From positions 384,809-448,808 of the forward strand of contig CAWGXL010000011.1 in the NCBI GenBank assembly GCA_963826535.1: 64,000 bases of DNA, read 5' to 3'. Below the pieces are notes generated by a model, which searched no databases, was not told the origin of the DNA, and saw nothing but the letters and a program-made list of their open reading frames with translations. Origin of the DNA: an uncultured bacterium. Its GTDB lineage: Bacteria > Patescibacteriota > Microgenomatia > Levybacterales > UBA12049. A program made the position numbers and the translations under genes. This document shows, piece by piece, positions 1 to 45,891 of the stretch (the stretch's first letter is position 1; every line of letters begins with the position of its first letter).

Positions 1-1941
1 AGGAAATTTATTTTAGATCAAATTAATTTAGACCGTATAAAGCAGCTTGGGGCACATTATAGTGGATTGAATGATCCGGAAAAGAGGAAAAGAGCGGAGA
101 AACTGATTGATGCCAGCAAAAAGGAAGTTGGTGATATGTCAATAAAAGATCTCAAAGTTGCATTTGATAGTTCGAAAAAACTTGAGGAATTGTTATTGAA
201 TATTGCGAATGTGGCTTTGGGTAAGCGGATTGTCAGTGAGAAGGACAAGAGGGATTATAAGTTGGGAGACAAGGCGGTTACTACAGATGAGATAAAAAGG
301 GAAGTAAAAATACTAATGCGGAAGAATTTGAAGAAAGATTTTTTTGATCCACTGGCGGAGCTTGAGGTGGGGGGGGAGAAGATTGGAGATATGAAAGTTT
401 TGTTAGATAGAGAGAACGGTCAGGTAGTGACGAAGGAAGAATGGGATCAAATTGGTACAAATAAAAGCACGACGATAGGGGCAATAATGAATGAATTTGC
501 GAATTTTGGCAGTGACGTGGATTTAATAAAAAGCTATGAGGATGCTTGTAAGCAAGGGGACAATGCAACTATTGATAAGTATAAACAGATGTTCGAGCGG
601 AATGAGAGACTTGCGTTTGCCTTGCTGACAAAAGTGGCTAATATGTCCAGGAAAAGTTTAAACTTTTTTAACGCAACAACTCCTCCTAAGGCGTCTATAG
701 ATATTATGAGAGAGTCGCTTACGAAGAGCATTGGCGAAACTCATGGTTTGAATTTAGTTGAGGCAGATCTCGCCTGGATGTTTGCCTGGTATGGATCATC
801 TCCTTTAAGGATTAAGGCATGGAATAATACTTCAGGGGTCAGTAACGTCGATCAGGGCACACGTTTTGTGCGAACTTTGGAGTCATTGAATTCTGCACAA
901 GGACTGGGGACAATAGGGGGGATTTTTATGGGCGAGATTAATGCCACGGCGCCAGGGTCGGCACTGGTAACGATTGACGTTAAGCGTCCCGGTGAGAAGA
1001 ATGCCAAGCTGAATTTGGCCGGGATTATGCAGGGGAATGAGCCGGGGCAAAGCGCAAGAAAGATAGCTCATTTGTGGGATAGGAAATTGTCTAATGACAA
1101 TAATTCCTATTTGGTAGATTGGGATGATGAGCGAATTGGACTACTCAATAATTTACAAAATGGTAATAAGCTTTTTGATGAACTGCTTAAAAATCAGGAG
1201 ATGCATCTTCAGGCATGTGCTAAGTGGGATGAGAATGGGGTGCTGAGGATTGACCACACGAAAGCGGTAGAGATTTTTGACAATTGGTGGAATACGCTGC
1301 GGCAGATTTATGATCTGAATGGCATAGATTTTGATAAAGAGATCCGGATTGACGGGCGGGAAGTAACGATATTTGAGCACATGTTTGGCAAGAAGATTAA
1401 GGAGTCGAGGGATCTATTACATATATACTATGAGCAAAAGGCAGCTGAGCTTGAAAAGGATGCTGAAGGATTATTAGTAAGTAAGAAAAATTCAGAGAGG
1501 CTCAAAAAAGATGCTGAAGCATACAGGATGTATGCAGAGAGGATCAAGAAGGAGCCGGCGATCGCGGTCATGGCGTATATGGCAGCGACGGAAATACATG
1601 ATCATAGAAAAAAATTTAAAGGCACACATGAGGAGTGGCCAATGGATGAGATAGATAAAATTTGGGGGACTTTGGATCAATTTTTGCGCAGGTCAGGGAA
1701 GATTGATCGGCATGGTAATGAACTTGAAATTGAGGAAATGCCGTCTATGCTTCCATTTGGGGCATTAAATAAAGTATTGGGTGTGCATAAGGGCTGGTTT
1801 TTAAAGGACTCGACGGAGAAGTACGAGTTTTTTGATCTTTTATTCGCTTTTTGTGAAGGATTGGTAAACGGAGTTAAGGGAGGCCTGGAAGAGTTTTCAG
1901 ATGAAATTGTACAGCTTGAGAAAGTCGTTATAGGCCATTGA
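1..1941 (+). CDS. hypothetical protein, 5'-partial (reading frame open to window start)
   Basis: 624-aa ORF from 67; the same frame has no stop back to nt 1, so the gene probably begins upstream. I recognise no motif. Confidence 0.45.
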   Translation, partial: RKFILDQINLDRIKQLGAHYSGLNDPEKRKRAEKLIDASKKEVGDMSIKDLKVAFDSSKKLEELLLNIANVALGKRIVSEKDKRDYKLGDKAVTTDEIKREVKILMRKNLKKDFFDPLAELEVGGEKIGDMKVLLDRENGQVVTKEEWDQIGTNKSTTIGAIMNEFANFGSDVDLIKSYEDACKQGDNATIDKYKQMFERNERLAFALLTKVANMSRKSLNFFNATTPPKASIDIMRESLTKSIGETHGLNLVEADLAWMFAWYGSSPLRIKAWNNTSGVSNVDQGTRFVRTLESLNSAQGLGTIGGIFMGEINATAPGSALVTIDVKRPGEKNAKLNLAGIMQGNEPGQSARKIAHLWDRKLSNDNNSYLVDWDDERIGLLNNLQNGNKLFDELLKNQEMHLQACAKWDENGVLRIDHTKAVEIFDNWWNTLRQIYDLNGIDFDKEIRIDGREVTIFEHMFGKKIKESRDLLHIYYEQKAAELEKDAEGLLVSKKNSERLKKDAEAYRMYAERIKKEPAIAVMAYMAATEIHDHRKKFKGTHEEWPMDEIDKIWGTLDQFLRRSGKIDRHGNELEIEEMPSMLPFGALNKVLGVHKGWFLKDSTEKYEFFDLLFAFCEGLVNGVKGGLEEFSDEIVQLEKVVIGH

Positions 1942-12640: not shown

Positions 12641-12856
12641 GGTGATTATAGTTTTTTTCGTGATTTCGAGGCTAAATTATGCGTATTTGTGGGGGGAGTT
12701 AGTTTTAGGCTACGCCCATAAAAAACCCTCGCTATCTAGCTTCTGTGGCTTGCCACGCGACAGTCCCACTCCGCAGATATAATAACTGAAGTCTTCTTGG
12801 TATTAAATTGTGGCTTGCCACGCGGAGCTCTTACTTGTTATAGTAAGAGCGAAGTG

Positions 12857-13311
12857 TGGAGATGTCCGGCAGTGAACCGGAGTCCGAGTAAAATGTTCTT
12901 ATAACTTCTACAAGCTTAGTCTCCCACTTCGCCAAAGGCTTCGCGGGATCATCCTTTCGGACGAAATTTTTGAGTTTCGCTTTACTTTTTCCAATTGACA
13001 GGAGAAGTAAAGTTAAGGTTAGATAAATTCGATAAGGACGCCAACCAACTTCCTTACTAATATCCTCAACTAGGTTTCTGCCCATAACTTCCCGTTGAGG
13101 GAGGAGGGTTATGAACAAGACAAAAGTTTAAGCAGCTAGTGCTAAACTTGGTCTAACTCCAAAGAGCTCGGCACGAATTGCTTCGGCCTCAGCTTTTAGA
13201 GCTGCAATGCGGTTTTTACCAGCATTTATATTTTGATTCATTTTAACGGCTTTGAATCGTTGCCGGCTTGCAGTTTTTAAGGTACTTTTCTCGTCGAATC
13301 AAGTCATCCCC
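12857..13311 (-). ncRNA. ssrA: tmRNA (ssrA), about 455 nt, directly downstream of smpB
   Basis: Minus strand: 5' GGGGATGACTTGATTCGACG matches the conserved tmRNA 5' GGGGnnGAnnnGGATTCGACG. The internal tag frame ends ...GVRPSLALAA-TAA. GACTAAGCTTGTAG matches the E. coli ACUAAGCAUGUAG motif. The 3' T-arm is TCCGG-TTCACTG-CCGGA followed by acceptor CATCTCC-A, which pairs with the 5' GGGGATG with a G3:U70. Confidence 0.75.
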
Positions 13312-21838: not shown

Positions 21839-24073
21839 TTAGTTATTTATCCTAAGCCTATTCTCTCTCATTGGCTGAGGAGTAAAAGTATTATTAATTG
21901 TTGGTCTGCAATCAGGGGTGTTCTCAGTTCCTTTGAGGAAGTATTCAACTTTTCCATTACATACTTTTTGAATTATTTCAGGTGGAGGATTTGGTTTGGT
22001 TGTGGGGGTAACCCCTAATAAGTTTTCCATTATTTTATGCCAAATTGGGGCGGCGCCGGTGATGCCGGATGCGAGGTTGGGACTCATGGGGGTGTTGTCA
22101 TTGTTGCCTACCCAGACGATGACTACGTAGTTATCGGTGTAGCCATTTGTCCAATTGTCTTTTTTGTAATCGGTCGTTCCAGTTTTTACGGATACGGTAT
22201 GCCCAGGTATATTTAGAGGCGAATTGGGGCCAAATGCATTGCTTCTTGCTTGATTGTCTGCCAGGATATCGGATAGGATAAACGCAACTCCTTTTTTGAG
22301 TACCTGTTGCGGGTGTACCTGTGTTTTTTCTTCAAGTACGTTGTTTCTGGAATCGGTGATTTTAAGCACAGGACTTAGGTTAACACGATTGCCATCATTG
22401 GCCAGGGTTCCGTAAACTGAAGCCAAATCCAGCATGGTTACTTCAGCTGCGCCAAGGGTTATGGATAGTCCATAGTTTTTAGGATCATCCCAAGTTGTTA
22501 TTCCCATTTTTTTTCCTAAATTTACCATGGAAGGCACTCCTATTTGGTTTAGGGTTTTAACTGCCGGAATATTAAATGAACTCGCGAGGGCAATGCGAAG
22601 CGGTACTTTGCCGTGATATTTTCCGTCGTAATTTACCGGTGAATAGGGTGTAGTATAATTTGGGAAGGTCACGGGGGTGTCTTCGAGAATAGAGGCGGCT
22701 GTGAATCCGTGTTCCAGAGCGGCTGCGTAAGTTACAACTTTTATTGATGATCCAGGTTGACGGAGGGACGCGGTGACATTGAAATTGCCGCCGTTTGGAT
22801 CGTGCCAATCACGGCTTCCGATCATGGCGATTATGTCACCGTTTTTGGGATCGGTGATAAGTACCGCTCCATTTGTGAGGTTGAGATAAGCATTGTTGTC
22901 AACTTCTTCTTTGACTATTTTTTCTGCCATTTGTTGGGTTTTGAGATCAAGTGAAGTCGTAATATTGAGGCCTCCCTTTTCAAGCATGGGCAGTCCGTAT
23001 TTTTGACTAATTTGATCTTTGATATAGGCCACAAAATGAGGTGCATGGATCGCAGTTGGTTGCTTTTTGAAATTTAACTGTTCTTTTTCCGCATTTTGGG
23101 ATTGAATTTTGGAGATGTAGTTCAGCTCGACCATTTTCGAGAGTACTTCTTTTTGTCTTTGCTTCCAGAGATTGGGGTTGCTACCGAAGGGAGAATAAAT
23201 TGTGGGCGCCGTGGTGAGTCCAGCAAGAAACGCGCTTTGGGCGAGATCAAGTTCTTTGGCAGGTTTGTCAAAATAGGTTTGGCTACCCGCTTCGATACCC
23301 CAGGCTGTTCCGCCATAAGGCACCTGATTGAAATACATTTCGAGAATTTGATTTTTGGTATAGATGCGTTCTGCCCAATATGCAAGAATCAGTTCTTTAG
23401 ATTTGCGTACGAGATTTTTTTCGGGAGTGAGAATGGAAGACTTGATCAGCTGTTGAGTGATAGTTGATCCGCCCTGGATTTTTCCTCCGGATAGATTTAC
23501 CCTAATGGCACGGATTATTGAGGGAATGTCAAAGCCGGGGTGTTTGTAAAAATTTTTATCTTCTATTGCCAGAGTTGCTTCTTGTAAATGATTAGGAATA
23601 TCGGATAGGGGTATAAGGGTTCTATTTTGTGAAGCATATATTTGGACGAGAAGTATTCCATTTTTATCAAATATTTTGGTGGTTTGCGGAATTTGACGTA
23701 GTGTTAGTTCATTTGGATTGGGGAGGTCTTGCAGAAAGATAAGAATAGTTGCGGGAAGAAAAAAAAATATGAGCGAGATGACGATGCCCGCGGCGAGGTA
23801 TTTGAGTTTGGACCGGAATGAGACGCGAGTGACAGGGAGTTTTTTTCGTTTGAATATTACTTTTGGCTTCCGCCTGTCGGCGGTTCTACGGTGTGCATCT
23901 ATGAATTTTTTAAAATAGAGATAATTATTTTTTAGATTTTTAATCCACTGAATATATTTTTTGCGGGATTTTTTAGGGAGTTTTTTAGTAAAAGAAATTA
24001 TTGCTCTTATTCCGTCTTCAATTTTTAGGAGGAAAACCAGCATGATAAATAACACGTGCAAAATTATTCGCAT
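21839..24073 (-). CDS. penicillin-binding protein 1A (bifunctional glycosyltransferase/transpeptidase)
   Basis: GT51 motifs (EDKNFYKHPGFD, GGSTITQQL) and transpeptidase motifs (SxxK: SSIK; KTGTT). Confidence 0.85.
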   Translation of the reverse strand: MRIILHVLFIMLVFLLKIEDGIRAIISFTKKLPKKSRKKYIQWIKNLKNNYLYFKKFIDAHRRTADRRKPKVIFKRKKLPVTRVSFRSKLKYLAAGIVISLIFFFLPATILIFLQDLPNPNELTLRQIPQTTKIFDKNGILLVQIYASQNRTLIPLSDIPNHLQEATLAIEDKNFYKHPGFDIPSIIRAIRVNLSGGKIQGGSTITQQLIKSSILTPEKNLVRKSKELILAYWAERIYTKNQILEMYFNQVPYGGTAWGIEAGSQTYFDKPAKELDLAQSAFLAGLTTAPTIYSPFGSNPNLWKQRQKEVLSKMVELNYISKIQSQNAEKEQLNFKKQPTAIHAPHFVAYIKDQISQKYGLPMLEKGGLNITTSLDLKTQQMAEKIVKEEVDNNAYLNLTNGAVLITDPKNGDIIAMIGSRDWHDPNGGNFNVTASLRQPGSSIKVVTYAAALEHGFTAASILEDTPVTFPNYTTPYSPVNYDGKYHGKVPLRIALASSFNIPAVKTLNQIGVPSMVNLGKKMGITTWDDPKNYGLSITLGAAEVTMLDLASVYGTLANDGNRVNLSPVLKITDSRNNVLEEKTQVHPQQVLKKGVAFILSDILADNQARSNAFGPNSPLNIPGHTVSVKTGTTDYKKDNWTNGYTDNYVVIVWVGNNDNTPMSPNLASGITGAAPIWHKIMENLLGVTPTTKPNPPPEIIQKVCNGKVEYFLKGTENTPDCRPTINNTFTPQPMRENRLRINN

Positions 24074-24160
24074 ATTTTTTAAAGGGAGTTTGGCAAGATT
24101 ATACTAAAGGGGTGGGGGATTGGAAAGGGCTATTTTTCTACACTTTCATTACGAAAATTT

Positions 24161-24394
24161 TCAGTACTGAGGTTTAGTTGATGCGGTGGGGGTTAATTCT
24201 GCTTCGATGGAGCTGGTTAGGATTTTGGGTTTTCCTATCAGGATAAGAGTGAGGATTGAGAGGATGACGATGATGGCAATCAATATCAAAGTAAAAATAA
24301 GGGTTTTTTTGCCTGATTCGCGGCTGTATTTTTTAAGACTCTGCGGGATGGGTAATTGAGACTCTTTGGACATATTTTTATCATATATGAACAA
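24161..24394 (-). CDS. small single-TM protein
   Basis: 77-aa ORF between the two PBP genes with one hydrophobic helix. Confidence 0.35.
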   Translation of the reverse strand: MFIYDKNMSKESQLPIPQSLKKYSRESGKKTLIFTLILIAIIVILSILTLILIGKPKILTSSIEAELTPTASTKPQY

Positions 24395-24425
24395 ATCTCA
24401 AATCTCAAATGTCAAAGCTATAATT

Positions 24426-26618
24426 TTAGGGTTTAGGGGTGGGGGTAGGGACGGGGCAGCTGGCGCAAAATTTGTTTCCGAGCGGATCGGTTATCACGTA
24501 TTCCTCTCTGGATTCAACGTTTTCAGTCTGTCCGTCTTTGGCTAAGTTGTTAGTGGATTTATCAATCCAGACCGATGTTTTGGCCGGGCCTGTTGTTTTG
24601 GGCTCAGTTCCTTTTACAAAATATTCGAGGCGGGTGGGGCAGCGATTTGCTGGGTCTGCCTGGGGGAGGAAGCCTGTATTGGAGCAGACAGATTTGGTTA
24701 CAACGTCAGTTGGTTTGGCCGGGTTTCTGGGCTCTTTGCCCTCCAACATATGCGTCATAAGTTTGTTCCAGATAGGGGCTGCTCCTGTAAGGCCTGAGAC
24801 AAGTCCGGTCATGGGGGTACGGTCGTTATTTCCGACCCATACGGAAACAACATATTGCGGAGTGTAGCCAATTGTCCAATTGTCTTTGTAATCATTGGTT
24901 GTTCCGGTTTTGACAGATACAAATTTTTTGCCTATTTTTAATTCTGAGTTTGGACCGAATGCCTCTTGTCTTGCATTGTTGTCGGCAAGAATATCAGAGA
25001 TGATCCAGGCGACTGCGGACGGGAGCACTTTTATCCCAAAGATCGGGCTTTTGGGAGGTTTATATTCTTCCAAAGTTTTACCATTTCGATCTGTTACTTT
25101 GAGGATAGGGTGCAGATCGACTCGATATCCTTGATTTGCAAATACTCCAAAGGCAGTTGTCATGTCAATCATTGTAACTTCACCTCCACCCAGAGTTAAT
25201 GATAACCCGTACCGGCTTGGGTCTTTAAATGACCTAATCCCCATGCTTGACGCGGTCGCAATCATGGACTCCAGGGTGTTGATCTTGAGCATTTCGACGG
25301 CGGGGATATTGAATGAGTTAGCTAAAGCATAGCGCATTTGGACAACACCATGGAAGCGGCCATCATAGTTGCGCGGGCAATACTTGACTGTGCCGGGGCT
25401 TGAGAAGCATAACGCTGTGTCAATAAAGGGAGTTGCAGCAGTATAGCCTTTTAGTAATCCAACAGCATAATTTATGGGTTTGATCGAGGATCCAGGTTGA
25501 AGCTGCTGAGCAGTCATATTCATATTTCCATCTTTGGGATCGTACCAATCTTTACTGCCAATCATTGCCAAGATTTCTCCAGTCGCGGGACTGGCGATAA
25601 GAGCAGCGCCATTGCCAACTTTATTCTGTTTTAATTTTGCTACTTCTGAAGCAACGACTAGTTGGGCAAATTCCTGGAGATCGAGGTCCAGACTTGTATA
25701 CACTTTCAACCCCCCTTGTTCTACAATATTTTCTCCATATTTATTTTGCAGGAGATCTCTTACGTAAAACACAAAATGGGGTGCTTTTATGGGATTGGTG
25801 ATTTTTTGGAATTGCAGTTCTTCGGCTGCAGCTTTATCGCGTTCTGTTTTATTGATATATCCCTGTTCAAACATTTTTTTTAGAATTTCTTTTTGTCTTT
25901 TTTTGCCGAGTTCGGGATGAGAGCCTAAAGGGGAGTATGTGCTAGGTGCTTCAGGAAGACCGGCTAAGTAGGCTTGCTGAGCAAGAGAAATGTTTTTTAC
26001 AGGTTTGCCGAAATAGGTTTGGGCTGCAGCTTCAACTCCGTACGAAGTTCCACCGTAAGGTACCTGATTGAGATACATTTCCAGGATTTCGTTTTTTGTG
26101 TACATGAATTCAACAACTACACTCAAAGCCAGTTCTTTGATCTTTCGAGTGAGAGTACGTTCAGGGGTTAGCAGTCCGTTTTTAACCAATTGCTGAGTCA
26201 GCGTAGAACCTCCTTGCAGCGTTTTCTGAAAGACGGTTGAATAGAATGCCCGAATAATTCCGCGAATGTCGACTGCGCCATGTTTATAGAAGTCTTTATC
26301 TTCGATGGCAATAGTTGCAAGTTGCAAGGTTTTGGGGATTTTTTCCAGCGGCATAAAGGTTTGGTTACGATTTGCGTAGATTGTATAGAGATGTGTTCCA
26401 TTTCTATCATAAATTTGGGTAGAATATGATACAGTAGTATTGCCTAACTTTGTCGGGGAGGGTAGGTCTTTGAGGAAGTAAAAGTAAAATGCTGTAGCAA
26501 CTATGACTGCGAGAATGCTGAGCAAAATAATACCAATTAATAGCCTTTTTCCTAAAAGATACATTTTTAGGAGTTTTGGTTTTTTTATAATTTTTTTATA
26601 GTGTTTAATTGTTGACAT
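24426..26618 (-). CDS. penicillin-binding protein 1A paralog
   Basis: EDKDFYKHGAVD, GGSTLTQQL, SSIK, KTGTT; a paralog of the adjacent gene. Confidence 0.85.
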   Translation of the reverse strand: MSTIKHYKKIIKKPKLLKMYLLGKRLLIGIILLSILAVIVATAFYFYFLKDLPSPTKLGNTTVSYSTQIYDRNGTHLYTIYANRNQTFMPLEKIPKTLQLATIAIEDKDFYKHGAVDIRGIIRAFYSTVFQKTLQGGSTLTQQLVKNGLLTPERTLTRKIKELALSVVVEFMYTKNEILEMYLNQVPYGGTSYGVEAAAQTYFGKPVKNISLAQQAYLAGLPEAPSTYSPLGSHPELGKKRQKEILKKMFEQGYINKTERDKAAAEELQFQKITNPIKAPHFVFYVRDLLQNKYGENIVEQGGLKVYTSLDLDLQEFAQLVVASEVAKLKQNKVGNGAALIASPATGEILAMIGSKDWYDPKDGNMNMTAQQLQPGSSIKPINYAVGLLKGYTAATPFIDTALCFSSPGTVKYCPRNYDGRFHGVVQMRYALANSFNIPAVEMLKINTLESMIATASSMGIRSFKDPSRYGLSLTLGGGEVTMIDMTTAFGVFANQGYRVDLHPILKVTDRNGKTLEEYKPPKSPIFGIKVLPSAVAWIISDILADNNARQEAFGPNSELKIGKKFVSVKTGTTNDYKDNWTIGYTPQYVVSVWVGNNDRTPMTGLVSGLTGAAPIWNKLMTHMLEGKEPRNPAKPTDVVTKSVCSNTGFLPQADPANRCPTRLEYFVKGTEPKTTGPAKTSVWIDKSTNNLAKDGQTENVESREEYVITDPLGNKFCASCPVPTPTPKP

Positions 26619-29155: not shown

Positions 29156-29228
29156 GGGCCAGTAGTTCAGCGGCTAGAACGGGCGTCTTATACACTCCAT
29201 GTCGGAGGTTCGAGTCCTCCCTGGCCCA
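29156..29228 (+). tRNA. tRNA-Ile, anticodon reads UAU
   Basis: GGGCCAG-TA-GTTCAGCGGCTAGAAC-G-GGCGT-CTTATAC-ACTCC-ATGTC-GGAGG-TTCGAGT-CCTCC-CTGGCCC-A; one C:U mismatch in the anticodon stem. Confidence 0.55.
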
Positions 29229-29382
29229 CAAACTGTAATTTGTTATGATAAATAAAGACTTCTTTGGGTTTGTAGCCTGCTTTGCTGGTGTAAAATACCA
29301 TAATGAAACCAGAACTAGACAGAACATTAGGGTTGAGGCTATATGAAGATCGGGATAAAATTAGTAGAATGAAGACAATGAT

Positions 29383-36196: not shown

Positions 36197-36358
36197 TTTC
36201 AAGTCAAGATATAACATATCAATAAGTGATCTTCATATTTGGCTTCAAACGAGTATATATTCTATTTCTTTTTCGAAGCGTAAAAGAGGGTTGAACCTAA
36301 TGATTTGGTTGTTAATTCAATAAAAATGGAGACTTATTATGCCTCCATTCCAAGTGTG

Positions 36359-36611
36359 TTGCGGGGCTAGGAGTTGAACCTAGCCTGTGAGATTATGCAT
36401 CGGTTGCTCCGATTACTCGGAGTGTCGGACTATATCATTCCCGATTAAATCGGGATTCAGCGTATAGTCTCTACGGGTTCTCGCCTAGGCGAGTCTTCCC
36501 TCGGTATTGCCCAGCTAAGCTGGGTTTCACCGATATAGCTGAATTCTCTGTTATATGTTGCCATATAAAGGGCCCATTTTGAGCCTCACGTGCGCCGTAC
36601 ACTACCCCGCG
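36359..36611 (-). tRNA. initiator tRNA-fMet (CAU) interrupted by a ~184-nt group I intron in the anticodon loop
   Basis: Minus strand. Exon 1 is CGCGGGG-TA-GTG-TACGGCG-CAC-G-TGAGG-CT (36611..36582). Exon 2 is CATAA-TCTCA-CAGG-CTAGG-TTCAACT-CCTAG-CCCCGCA-A (36397..36359). The 5' CGCGGGG and 3' CCCCGCAA are identical to E. coli tRNA-fMet and give the C1xA72 mismatch. The spliced anticodon loop is CUCAUAA. Confidence 0.7.
36398..36581 (-). other. group I intron (inserted between nt 33 and 34 of tRNA-fMet)
   Basis: U at -1 of the 5' splice site; the intron ends in G (omega G). GGGCC at intron nt 8-12 can pair with exon GGCU to form P1. GUAGAGACUA and AUAUAGUCCGAC match the conserved P7 strands (AGACUA / UAGUC) of Azoarcus and Tetrahymena group I introns. 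Confidence 0.65.
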
Positions 36612-36680
36612 ATATTATTTTCATTATTATAACAATTGATTCATTCAAGGTCAAATGTTATACTTTTACCACTAAAATAA

Positions 36681-36752
36681 GCCAACGTAGCTCAGTGGTA
36701 GAGCAATCGTTTCATAAGCGATCGGTCACAGGTTCGAATCCTGTCGTTGGTA
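36681..36752 (+). tRNA. elongator tRNA-Met (CAU), or tRNA-Ile2 if C34 is modified
   Basis: GCCAACG-TA-GCTCAGTGGTAGAGC-A-ATCGT-TTCATAA-GCGAT-CGGTC-ACAGG-TTCGAAT-CCTGT-CGTTGGT-A. Confidence 0.8.
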
Positions 36753-36822
36753 CTATGCTTTGTAAAGCAAAACAAATGTAGATTAGTAAAGGAGCTCGCG
36801 GGAGGCGAGTTTTATTTTAATT

Positions 36823-44851: not shown

Positions 44852-45099
44852 GAGTATAACAAATTGTTATAGGACTTGATTATTAAGATAGATTAATATA
44901 TAAGTAAATCAACAATTTAACTAATCAAGAGTGATGGGGAGAGAATTGGCTTGATGATCCATCCAGCAACCGGCTACAAAAGCAGCGGTGCTACACCCAA
45001 CCCTGTAGGGGGAAGGATTTGTCCTTGGAGTAATCAAAGGAAAATATTTTATACCTCTCTTTACAGGAGAGGTTTTTTTGTGGGAAGGAGGCGAAATAT

Positions 45100-45891
45100 A
45101 TGCATGAAAGAGATAGGGATGGGATTAGGCGTATTCAACAAAATTTAGTTGAAAACAAAGGACAACAAGAGCAAAAGTCTTCGAGAGTGGAAGGGGTGCG
45201 AAGAGAGCTTGTGAGAATTGCCAACGAAACAAAAGCAAAATATAAGAGGGAAGAGGAGGCAATGCGTCCAGATGCAGAGGTTGCTGTTAAAGAAATAATT
45301 CAACCTTGGTTTTCAGACTTAATTGCTTCAGGTACATACGAAGACCTATTAAGGTGGTCAAGGTTTAACGAGTATAATGTCTATCTCTCGGAAACAATTT
45401 TATACTATTGGCCTAATCGTGCTCTAAAGGAGATAGCAAGTGGAGACAGTAAGCTTTATAAAGATAAAGCAGAATTCGTGGTTGAAAGATATAAAGGATC
45501 AGATATCAAAAAAGGAATTCAGTCCCACGCTGATAGAGACAATGTATGGCATGCTGGTTTTAAGATGGGTAGAGGCAGGTGGCGTGATAATACTGATGGA
45601 TTAAGAATTTGGCGGTGGCCAGTGGTAGGAGGGGGATTTGCCTTTTCTCAGAGTGCGATTTACTATGAAATTCCTGTAAATGAGCACAGCGTTGCCTTTT
45701 TTTTGGACAGGATTAGTCCAGAGGTATGGGTAGAATTTGGCAAGCAGATTGAAAGCGGAAAGGCTTGGGATGCAATAGAGCGCTCTATGAAACCGAAAAA
45801 GAGAGCGTCAGCTCGAGAAGCAACCGAAAGAGATGTAGAAGAAGAAAAAAGAGTTGCTCAAGAGTACCTAAGGAACCGGCAATGGCACTAA
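45100..45891 (+). CDS. hypothetical protein
   Basis: 263-aa ORF; charged and Trp-rich; no motif recognised. Confidence 0.4.
   Translation: MHERDRDGIRRIQQNLVENKGQQEQKSSRVEGVRRELVRIANETKAKYKREEEAMRPDAEVAVKEIIQPWFSDLIASGTYEDLLRWSRFNEYNVYLSETILYYWPNRALKEIASGDSKLYKDKAEFVVERYKGSDIKKGIQSHADRDNVWHAGFKMGRGRWRDNTDGLRIWRWPVVGGGFAFSQSAIYYEIPVNEHSVAFFLDRISPEVWVEFGKQIESGKAWDAIERSMKPKKRASAREATERDVEEEKRVAQEYLRNRQWH

Follow-up and report, generated by a model that had tools for sequence, protein, structure and literature searches.

The Azoarcus pre-tRNA-Ile group I intron, a 205-nt intron of subgroup IC3 whose splicing has been demonstrated experimentally, lies in a tRNA anticodon loop and is minimal in form, without peripheral domains and with GNRA-capped P2 and P9 helices and a short P1. 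Bacterial tRNA introns have four classical sites, one of which is position 33/34 of tRNA-fMet (“fMet.2Ug”). In cyanobacteria and other phyla it is occupied by IC3 introns that follow U33 and precede C34; U stands at −1 and the last intron base is G. The examples seen are 233–303 nt long and interrupt canonical tRNA-fMet exons with GGG/CCC stems, and those that bear an endonuclease encode a PD-(D/E)XK enzyme. Nakagawa et al. (mSystems 2026, PMC13011429) listed “Met (CAU) 33/34” introns of 190 and 216 nt in two Microgenomatia genomes, GCA_001029755.1 and GCA_013426185.1; these introns are labelled Met rather than initiator and are not discussed individually.

In the 64-kb window analysed here (the whole stretch of DNA, positions 1-64000), we probably have a Levybacteria-like chromosome (Microgenomates, Patescibacteria/CPR) in which an ORF-less, compact group I intron splits an initiator-type tRNA(CAU) gene at U33/C34. 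The intron is a further member of the published Microgenomatia family and not a new kind of element: in the listed sequences the exons are of the same type (xGCGGGGTAGTGTAC...CCCCGCAA), insertion site and family are the same, and our family profile scored the two introns at 139.6 and 93.3 bits, the differences being length (184 nt here) and genome of origin. A preliminary description of the locus had taken group I introns in initiator tRNA to be known mainly from cyanobacteria, but tRNA-fMet 33/34 introns are known from several phyla, and one in this lineage is not new, the survey listing the same intron family in two Microgenomatia genomes. Compared with the Azoarcus intron, the window intron has the same minimal architecture and also lies in an anticodon loop, but it occupies a different tRNA and site, probably belongs to a different lineage and is 21 nt shorter, with self-splicing predicted. 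The classical fMet introns share its insertion site, the U at −1, the terminal G and, presumably, the function of the tRNA that they interrupt.

The gene and its surroundings, with the same gene coordinates as first noted, are as follows.

36626..36654, minus strand: putative sigma-70-type promoter, TTGACC-17 nt-TATAAT with a TG extension (11/12 consensus matches), ending 15 nt upstream of tRNA position 1
36611-36359, minus strand: whole split tRNA gene, two exons and a 184-nt intron
36582..36611, minus strand: 5′ exon, 30 nt; acceptor strand CGCGGGG, UA, D arm GUGU-ACGGC-GCAC, G, anticodon-stem strand UGAGG, C32 and U33
36398..36581, minus strand: group I intron, 184 nt, from the C after U33 to the terminal (omega) G at 36398; match to RF00028
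36359..36397, minus strand: 3′ exon, 39 nt; anticodon CAU, A37 and A38, stem strand UCUCA, variable loop CAGG, T arm CUAGG-UUCAACU-CCUAG, acceptor strand CCCCGCA and discriminator A
36318..36351, minus strand: terminator-like hairpin followed by a U-rich tail (−13.6 kcal/mol, z −4.5), presumably a terminator
36681..36753, plus strand: divergently transcribed elongator-type tRNA-Met(CAU), found by ARAGORN and by the Rfam tRNA model (73.1 bits)

The minus strand reads CGCGGGGTA at 36611 and the gene terminates with CCCCGCA-A at 36359, so that the exon ends proposed earlier, CGCGGGG-TA and CCCCGCA-A with a C1×A72 mismatch, are indeed present. The 5′ exon closes with GGCU at 36582 and the 3′ exon opens with CAUAAUC. 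Ligation therefore gives the anticodon loop CUCAUAA that had been predicted, in a 69-nt tRNA with the anticodon CAU that folds as a cloverleaf and is called tRNA-Met(cat) by ARAGORN; CCA is not encoded in the 3′ exon. The loop of the terminator-like hairpin exceeds the length allowed by the terminator scanner, which accordingly missed it. Within the 69-bp spacer that separates the split gene on the minus strand from tRNA-Met on the plus strand (36612-36680), promoter-like sites overlap back to back, TTGACC-17-TATAAT on the minus strand and TTGATT-17-TATACT on the plus strand. The elongator-type neighbour is common at related loci, and the XerD-like, MurD, Tgt and tRNA-Met neighbours, shared with Levybacteria loci, place the window in the Levybacteria lineage.

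All helices from P1 to P10 could be drawn, including the P4-P6 domain and the P3/P7 pseudoknot, with the following elements.

36571..36585, minus strand: P1 hairpin, exon GGCU (36585-36582) with guide GGCC (36574-36571), U.G at the splice site
36577-36575, minus strand: P10, AUG pairing with CAU of the 3′ exon
36551..36568, minus strand: P2, 7 bp, GNRA loop GCAA; 7/7 pairs changed on both sides among relatives
36538..36544, minus strand: P3 5′ strand AUUCAGC; 6/7 pairs changed on both sides
36501..36533, minus strand: P4 (UCGGU/ACCGA), J4/5 GAAA, P5 hairpin and J5/4 CAAU; P4 99.4% paired, base of P5 covarying
36475..36500, minus strand: P6 (GGG/CCC) and P6a hairpin; P6 93.6% paired, P6a partly misaligned by MAFFT
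36465..36471, minus strand: P7 5′ strand G-(A bulge)-GACUA, invariant and 100% paired, including the G of the guanosine-site G-C pair
36455..36461, minus strand: P3 3′ strand GCUGAAU, closing the P3/P7 pseudoknot
36440..36454, minus strand: P8 hairpin CCCGAU-UUA-AUCGGG; covarying, outer parts misaligned
36427..36439, minus strand: J8/7 AAUGAUA and P7 3′ strand UAGUCC, partly fixed by the search pattern
36407..36422, minus strand: P9, 6 bp, GNRA loop GUAA; 98.8% paired, 5/6 pairs covarying

One continuous guide, AUGGGCC (36577-36571), aligns both exons, and the U33.G pair at the splice site (36582/36574) confirms the earlier proposal that an internal guide holds the 5′-exon GGCU. P8 follows directly on P3 with no P7.1 or P7.2, peripheral domains are absent from the intron, and nine bases follow P9, the last of them the terminal G. 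The layout of P7, GACUA with its bulged A against UAGUCC, is that of the Rfam consensus; we take its G-C pair to be the guanosine-binding position, as in the known group I mechanism. A P9.0 pairing was also sought: it is visible in one clade (ACC/GGU) and unconvincing in that of the window, and we make no claim for it. The 184-nt intron holds no endonuclease ORF, and the only ORF listed there, a 43-codon GTG ORF extending into the 5′ exon, we take to be spurious.

Against the Rfam group I model (RF00028, Intron_gpI) the intron scored 60.4 bits, over the cut-off of 50, with an E-value of 4.7e-15 when a 381-nt slice was searched and of 7.9e-13 for the whole window under permissive filters. GUAGAGACUA and GAUAUAGUCCGAC aligned with the P7 and J8/7 consensus of this model, in agreement with the conserved P7 strands claimed at the outset. 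Compared with shuffled sequences, the folding of the precursor gave a z of −5.6. A composite pattern, in which the P7 3′ strand is followed by G-CATAA and that by CCCCGCA, has a chance expectation of 0.00 occurrences in the window. Despite the score above cut-off, a default-filter Rfam scan of the whole 64-kb window in gathering mode left the intron (36406-36591) unreported, and neither ARAGORN nor the Rfam tRNA model called the split tRNA gene in the window, as had been foreseen for ordinary tRNA scans. Because standard tRNA finders and default Rfam filters both miss the gene, the genome would seem to lack an initiator tRNA; routine annotation would overlook the intron as well as the tRNA, and ARAGORN in intron mode returns a tRNA-Leu(CAA) instead.

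We searched a genome collection with the composite pattern and obtained at least 119 loci, among which were approximately 100 homologous split genes, approximately 16 chance matches and 3 real members running off the end of the locus or contig. The wide host spread that the raw matches imply (OM43 Methylophilaceae, Blautia, Faecalicatena, Treponema, Acidobacteriaceae and Planctomycetales) was rejected, the approximately 16 matches concerned being unrelated DNA without an upstream exon. Real members came from Microgenomates/Patescibacteria, namely Levy-, Gottesman-, Davies-, Woese-, Ames-, Shapiro-, Roizman- and Blackburn-bacteria, bins named “Microgenomates” or “Patescibacteria group” and one Parcubacteria bin, and from records with seemingly wrong titles. 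The latter, titled “uncultured Gammaproteobacteria”, “Pseudomonadales”, “Lysobacterales”, “Eisenbacteria” or “Omnitrophota”, carry a Microgenomates-type tRNA with the intron and include loci L001, L002 and L004 (OZ246397.1, a 615-kb chromosome) and approximately 35 others, probably through mislabelling of the taxon or mis-binning of the contigs.

In a MAFFT alignment of 99 homologues, 86.6% of the cells in the proposed helices could pair, compared with 32-48% when the partners were slid, and changes on both sides were seen in 38/58 pairs; these values were reached by 0/500 shuffles. Compensatory changes occurred in P2, P3, P5, P6, P8 and P9, although MAFFT misaligned distal P5, P6a and P8, where only 40-72% of cells paired. 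P1 was 98.7% paired, with the U.G pair in 99/99, P10 was 91.6% paired, and GNRA loops capped L2 in 88/99 and L9 in 98/99 homologues. The P3/P7 pseudoknot, whose foldability had been set as a check, thus combines a covarying P3 with an invariant, fully paired P7. Because the search pattern itself prescribed the terminal G, CAUAA, CCCCGCA and ATATAGTC in the relatives, the invariance of the terminal G and of part of J8/7-P7 within the family is not independent evidence. The tRNA stems were 97% paired among homologues, and 3/5 anticodon-stem pairs covaried across the intron with zero unpaired cells; since the two strands of this stem lie on opposite sides of the intron, selection acts on the spliced product. 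Taken as comparative sequence evidence, these results establish a group I core and the limits of exons and intron, and they show that the ribozyme helices and the anticodon stem formed on splicing are both under selection.

Considering where the junction lies, a metagenome scan for the uninterrupted form of the gene yielded more than 120 loci, and the best intron-less allele among the matches equals the predicted ligated exons at 68/69 positions, with the junction GGCT|CATAATC intact. This agreement fixes the splice junction and with it the intron length of 184 nt. Together with the covariance-model match and the covariation, it upholds the original claim of a CAU tRNA split after U33. ARAGORN -i reads the precursor differently, as tRNA-Leu(caa) i(34,184), which moves the intron three bases downstream to position 36/37, and PMC13011429 reports the same Leu(CAA) miscall for GCA_013426185.1. 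That junction gives A at −1 and U at the intron end in place of U and G, and the first intron bases vary in relatives (CAA, AGT, TAA and others) while CAUAA stays constant, partly by design of the pattern; the intron-less alleles, which read GGCTCATAATC, rule the leucine reading out, leaving it a negligible probability. Another account, in which the gene is decaying into a pseudogene and its intron has lost the ability to splice, draws on a relative, L086 (L086:2075-2265, minus strand, Amesbacteria GW2011_GWA1_47_20), with a 121-nt intron from which a deletion has removed the P4 3′ strand, P6, the P7 5′ strand, the P3 3′ strand and P8. It scores 34 bits on the Rfam model and is either a dead intron in an initiator-type gene or an assembly collapse, so dead copies or artefacts do exist in the family. 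The window copy, however, has all core helices intact, an Rfam score over cut-off and a near-consensus promoter, its exons are one base from intact genes, and the changes across the family are compensatory and not those of decay, all of which makes loss of function here very improbable. We therefore retain an intact group I intron at U33/C34. Fifteen distinct mature sequences were found both split and unsplit, showing that close relatives are polymorphic for presence of the intron. L171, the closest neighbour at the protein level (86% identity of the XerD-like protein), has no intron; L116 is split, with an intron 87% and a Tgt 73% identical to those of the window.

If the intron is real, its host could still be an elongator tRNA-Met, with the initiator encoded elsewhere. 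The acceptor stem CGCGGGG/CCCCGCA with A73 we take to be that of bacterial initiators: the 1:72 position is C1×A72, which forms no Watson-Crick pair, and G2-C71, C3-G70 and A73 are present. Among the 99 relatives G2-C71 through G7-C66 are invariant, and position 1 is U in 37/99, forming a weak U1-A72 pair (C:U roughly 60:40), which speaks for an elongator. A run of three G-C pairs in the anticodon stem is highly conserved in initiators, although natural exceptions are known. Here the pairs G29-C41, G30-C40 and G31-C39 are replaced by A-U, G-C and G.U, with G31.U39 in 98/99 relatives, and U11:A24 stands in 98/99 where A11:U24 would be expected, which likewise favours an elongator, as does the typing of intron-less homologues as “Met(CAT)” and not “fMet” in Table S3 of PMC13011429. 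Against this, the acceptor stem and A73 are of initiator type and are the same as in the otherwise wholly canonical tRNA-fMet of Parcubacteria L020, an ordinary elongator-type tRNA-Met adjoins the gene here and at many related loci, and the GGG/CCC stem occurs in 0 of approximately 170 other CAU tRNAs near homologous genes. The adjacent elongator-type gene is the sole other CAU tRNA in the 64-kb window, which holds no second xGCGGGG...CCCCGCA gene; BLAST of this neighbour against E. coli genomes gave sporadic tRNA matches only and no typing. The tRNA census in PMC13011429 counts Met = 2 in intron-less Microgenomatia genomes and, by tRNAscan-SE, Met = 1 in intron-bearing GCA_013426185.1, the only intron-bearing relative with cleanly readable counts there. 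The complete genomes checked in that census carry either two Met genes or a single one where the split gene escapes tRNAscan-SE, so that initiation must fall to one of the pair. An elongator host is therefore unlikely, and the spliced tRNA is probably an initiator. Since the three G-C pairs and A11:U24 are absent, we file it as a divergent initiator by function and not as a canonical member, identified partly by elimination; of the initiator identity first asserted, the acceptor stem stands, whereas the missing elements turn the word “initiator” into a matter of inference. The split gene is presumably the only initiator gene of its genome.

This initiator-type tRNA has the same build throughout the Microgenomates homologues (L001-L239), with a length of 69-72 nt, G30-C40/G31.U39, a D-loop of 5-6 nt and a variable loop of 4 nt, and we found no description of such a non-canonical tRNA in the literature. 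In 176 parsed homologues the third base of the D-loop (36595-36597) covaries almost perfectly with the second base of the T-loop (36376-36378), G in the former being matched by U or C in the latter, and A by G, apart from a few exceptions; this is consistent with an 18:55 tertiary pair that has been kept although the D-loop has shrunk. A tRNA-Ile(UAU) lies at 29156-29229 on the plus strand, and ARAGORN finds the same tRNA in 61 related loci. Its presence means that a CAU tRNA-Ile2 is not needed to read AUA, which favours the initiator role of the split gene by elimination, and suggests that this codon is read without a lysidine-modified CAU tRNA in the clade.

Family introns range from 166 to 253 nt (median 199, n = 99), with 6 shorter than the 184 nt of the window intron and 70/99 shorter than 205 nt; on the Rfam model the 176-nt intron of L094 scores 81.5 bits and the 166-nt intron of L084 41.4 bits. 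The 333 introns surveyed in PMC13011429 span 184-894 nt, and the window intron ties this minimum. The suggestion that it is one of the smallest natural group I introns is thus fair at 184 nt, but its own family reaches 166-183 nt; our literature search found no usable statement on the smallest group I intron. For ribozyme work, the family offers some 100 naturally occurring, covarying versions of this very small group I intron; most are below the 205-nt Azoarcus model and would serve as minimal scaffolds. At the other extreme, L070 (L070:504-1230, minus strand) carries a 657-nt intron with an ORF (595-1101, minus strand) for a 168-aa LAGLIDADG endonuclease that matches Pfam PF14528 and PF00961, each over cut-off. 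Endonuclease-bearing classical fMet introns differ in encoding PD-(D/E)XK enzymes, and PMC13011429 records only HNH enzymes in Patescibacteria tRNA introns and PD-(D/E)XK in fMet introns.

Scored with the family profile, IC3 fMet introns and the intron of L020 reached 37-50 bits, and an IA3-labelled Elusimicrobiota intron 71.5 bits, the closest core outside the family among those compared. The latter (tRNA-Phe 31/32; IA3 in Table S5 of PMC13011429) has GCUAUAUCGGUG, CAAUACCGAGGGAAG and ACCCGUA-GACUACACGC in common with the window family, but lies in another tRNA and site, is 246 nt long and has extra 3′ hairpins. In the same survey no Patescibacteria tRNA intron is assigned to IC. Judged by these profile scores, the window intron is probably not of the cyanobacterial IC3 lineage, and the low scores of IC3 fMet introns suggest that two intron lineages occupy the same tRNA site. 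Parcubacteria Gr01-1014_17 (L020:5828-6134, minus strand) has a canonical tRNA-fMet (D arm GAGC-AGCCUGGUA-GCUC) split at 33/34 by a 233-nt intron whose core is like that of the IC3 fMet introns of Omnitrophota/Desulfobacterota and unlike the Microgenomates family.

From these features we infer guanosine-dependent self-splicing of the precursor. The split gene would be transcribed from its own promoter, and the intron would fold into P1-P10 with the P3/P7 pseudoknot, AUGGGCC holding GGCU in P1 and CAU in P10. As is standard for group I introns, splicing would start when an external guanosine, held in P7, attacks after U33; the terminal G (36398) would then replace this guanosine, and U33 would attack the 3′ splice site. 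Joining of the exons would give the 69-nt tRNA with the loop CUCAUAA, to be matured by RNase P and the CCA-adding enzyme. In PMC13011429, splicing tests covered only Asn and Asp introns.

For CPR biology, this would be an essential, probably single-copy gene that relies on RNA self-splicing, and its product departs from two features held to be near-universal in bacterial initiators. If it is the sole initiator gene, as the census suggests for GCA_013426185.1, every round of initiation would need a 184-nt protein-free ribozyme. We regard it as improbable that the intron is a regulatory gate and not a neutral passenger, linking the supply of initiator tRNA to the guanine-nucleotide and Mg2+ pool; if true, global protein synthesis in a cell dependent on scavenged nucleotides would be coupled to a splicing reaction that uses up a free guanosine nucleotide in its first step. 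Likewise, a minimal initiator without the three-G-C run and with a 5-nt D-loop would, if true, imply a relaxed or altered IF3/P-site checkpoint across Microgenomates.

Elsewhere in the window, which has approximately 40% G+C, GC skew is positive in all 4-kb bins (0.06-0.28) with no sign change, and nearly all long ORFs lie on the plus strand from approximately 29 kb onward. A tmRNA at 12854-13311 on the minus strand (101.9 bits) has large insertions relative to the Rfam model and a predicted tag AEAEAIRAELFGVRPSLALAA. Two tandem paralogues of the PBP1A family occupy 21839-26618 on the minus strand, and a SAM (S-box) riboswitch at 44919-45023 on the plus strand (52.7 bits, cut-off 44.4) precedes a 263-codon ORF (45100-45891).
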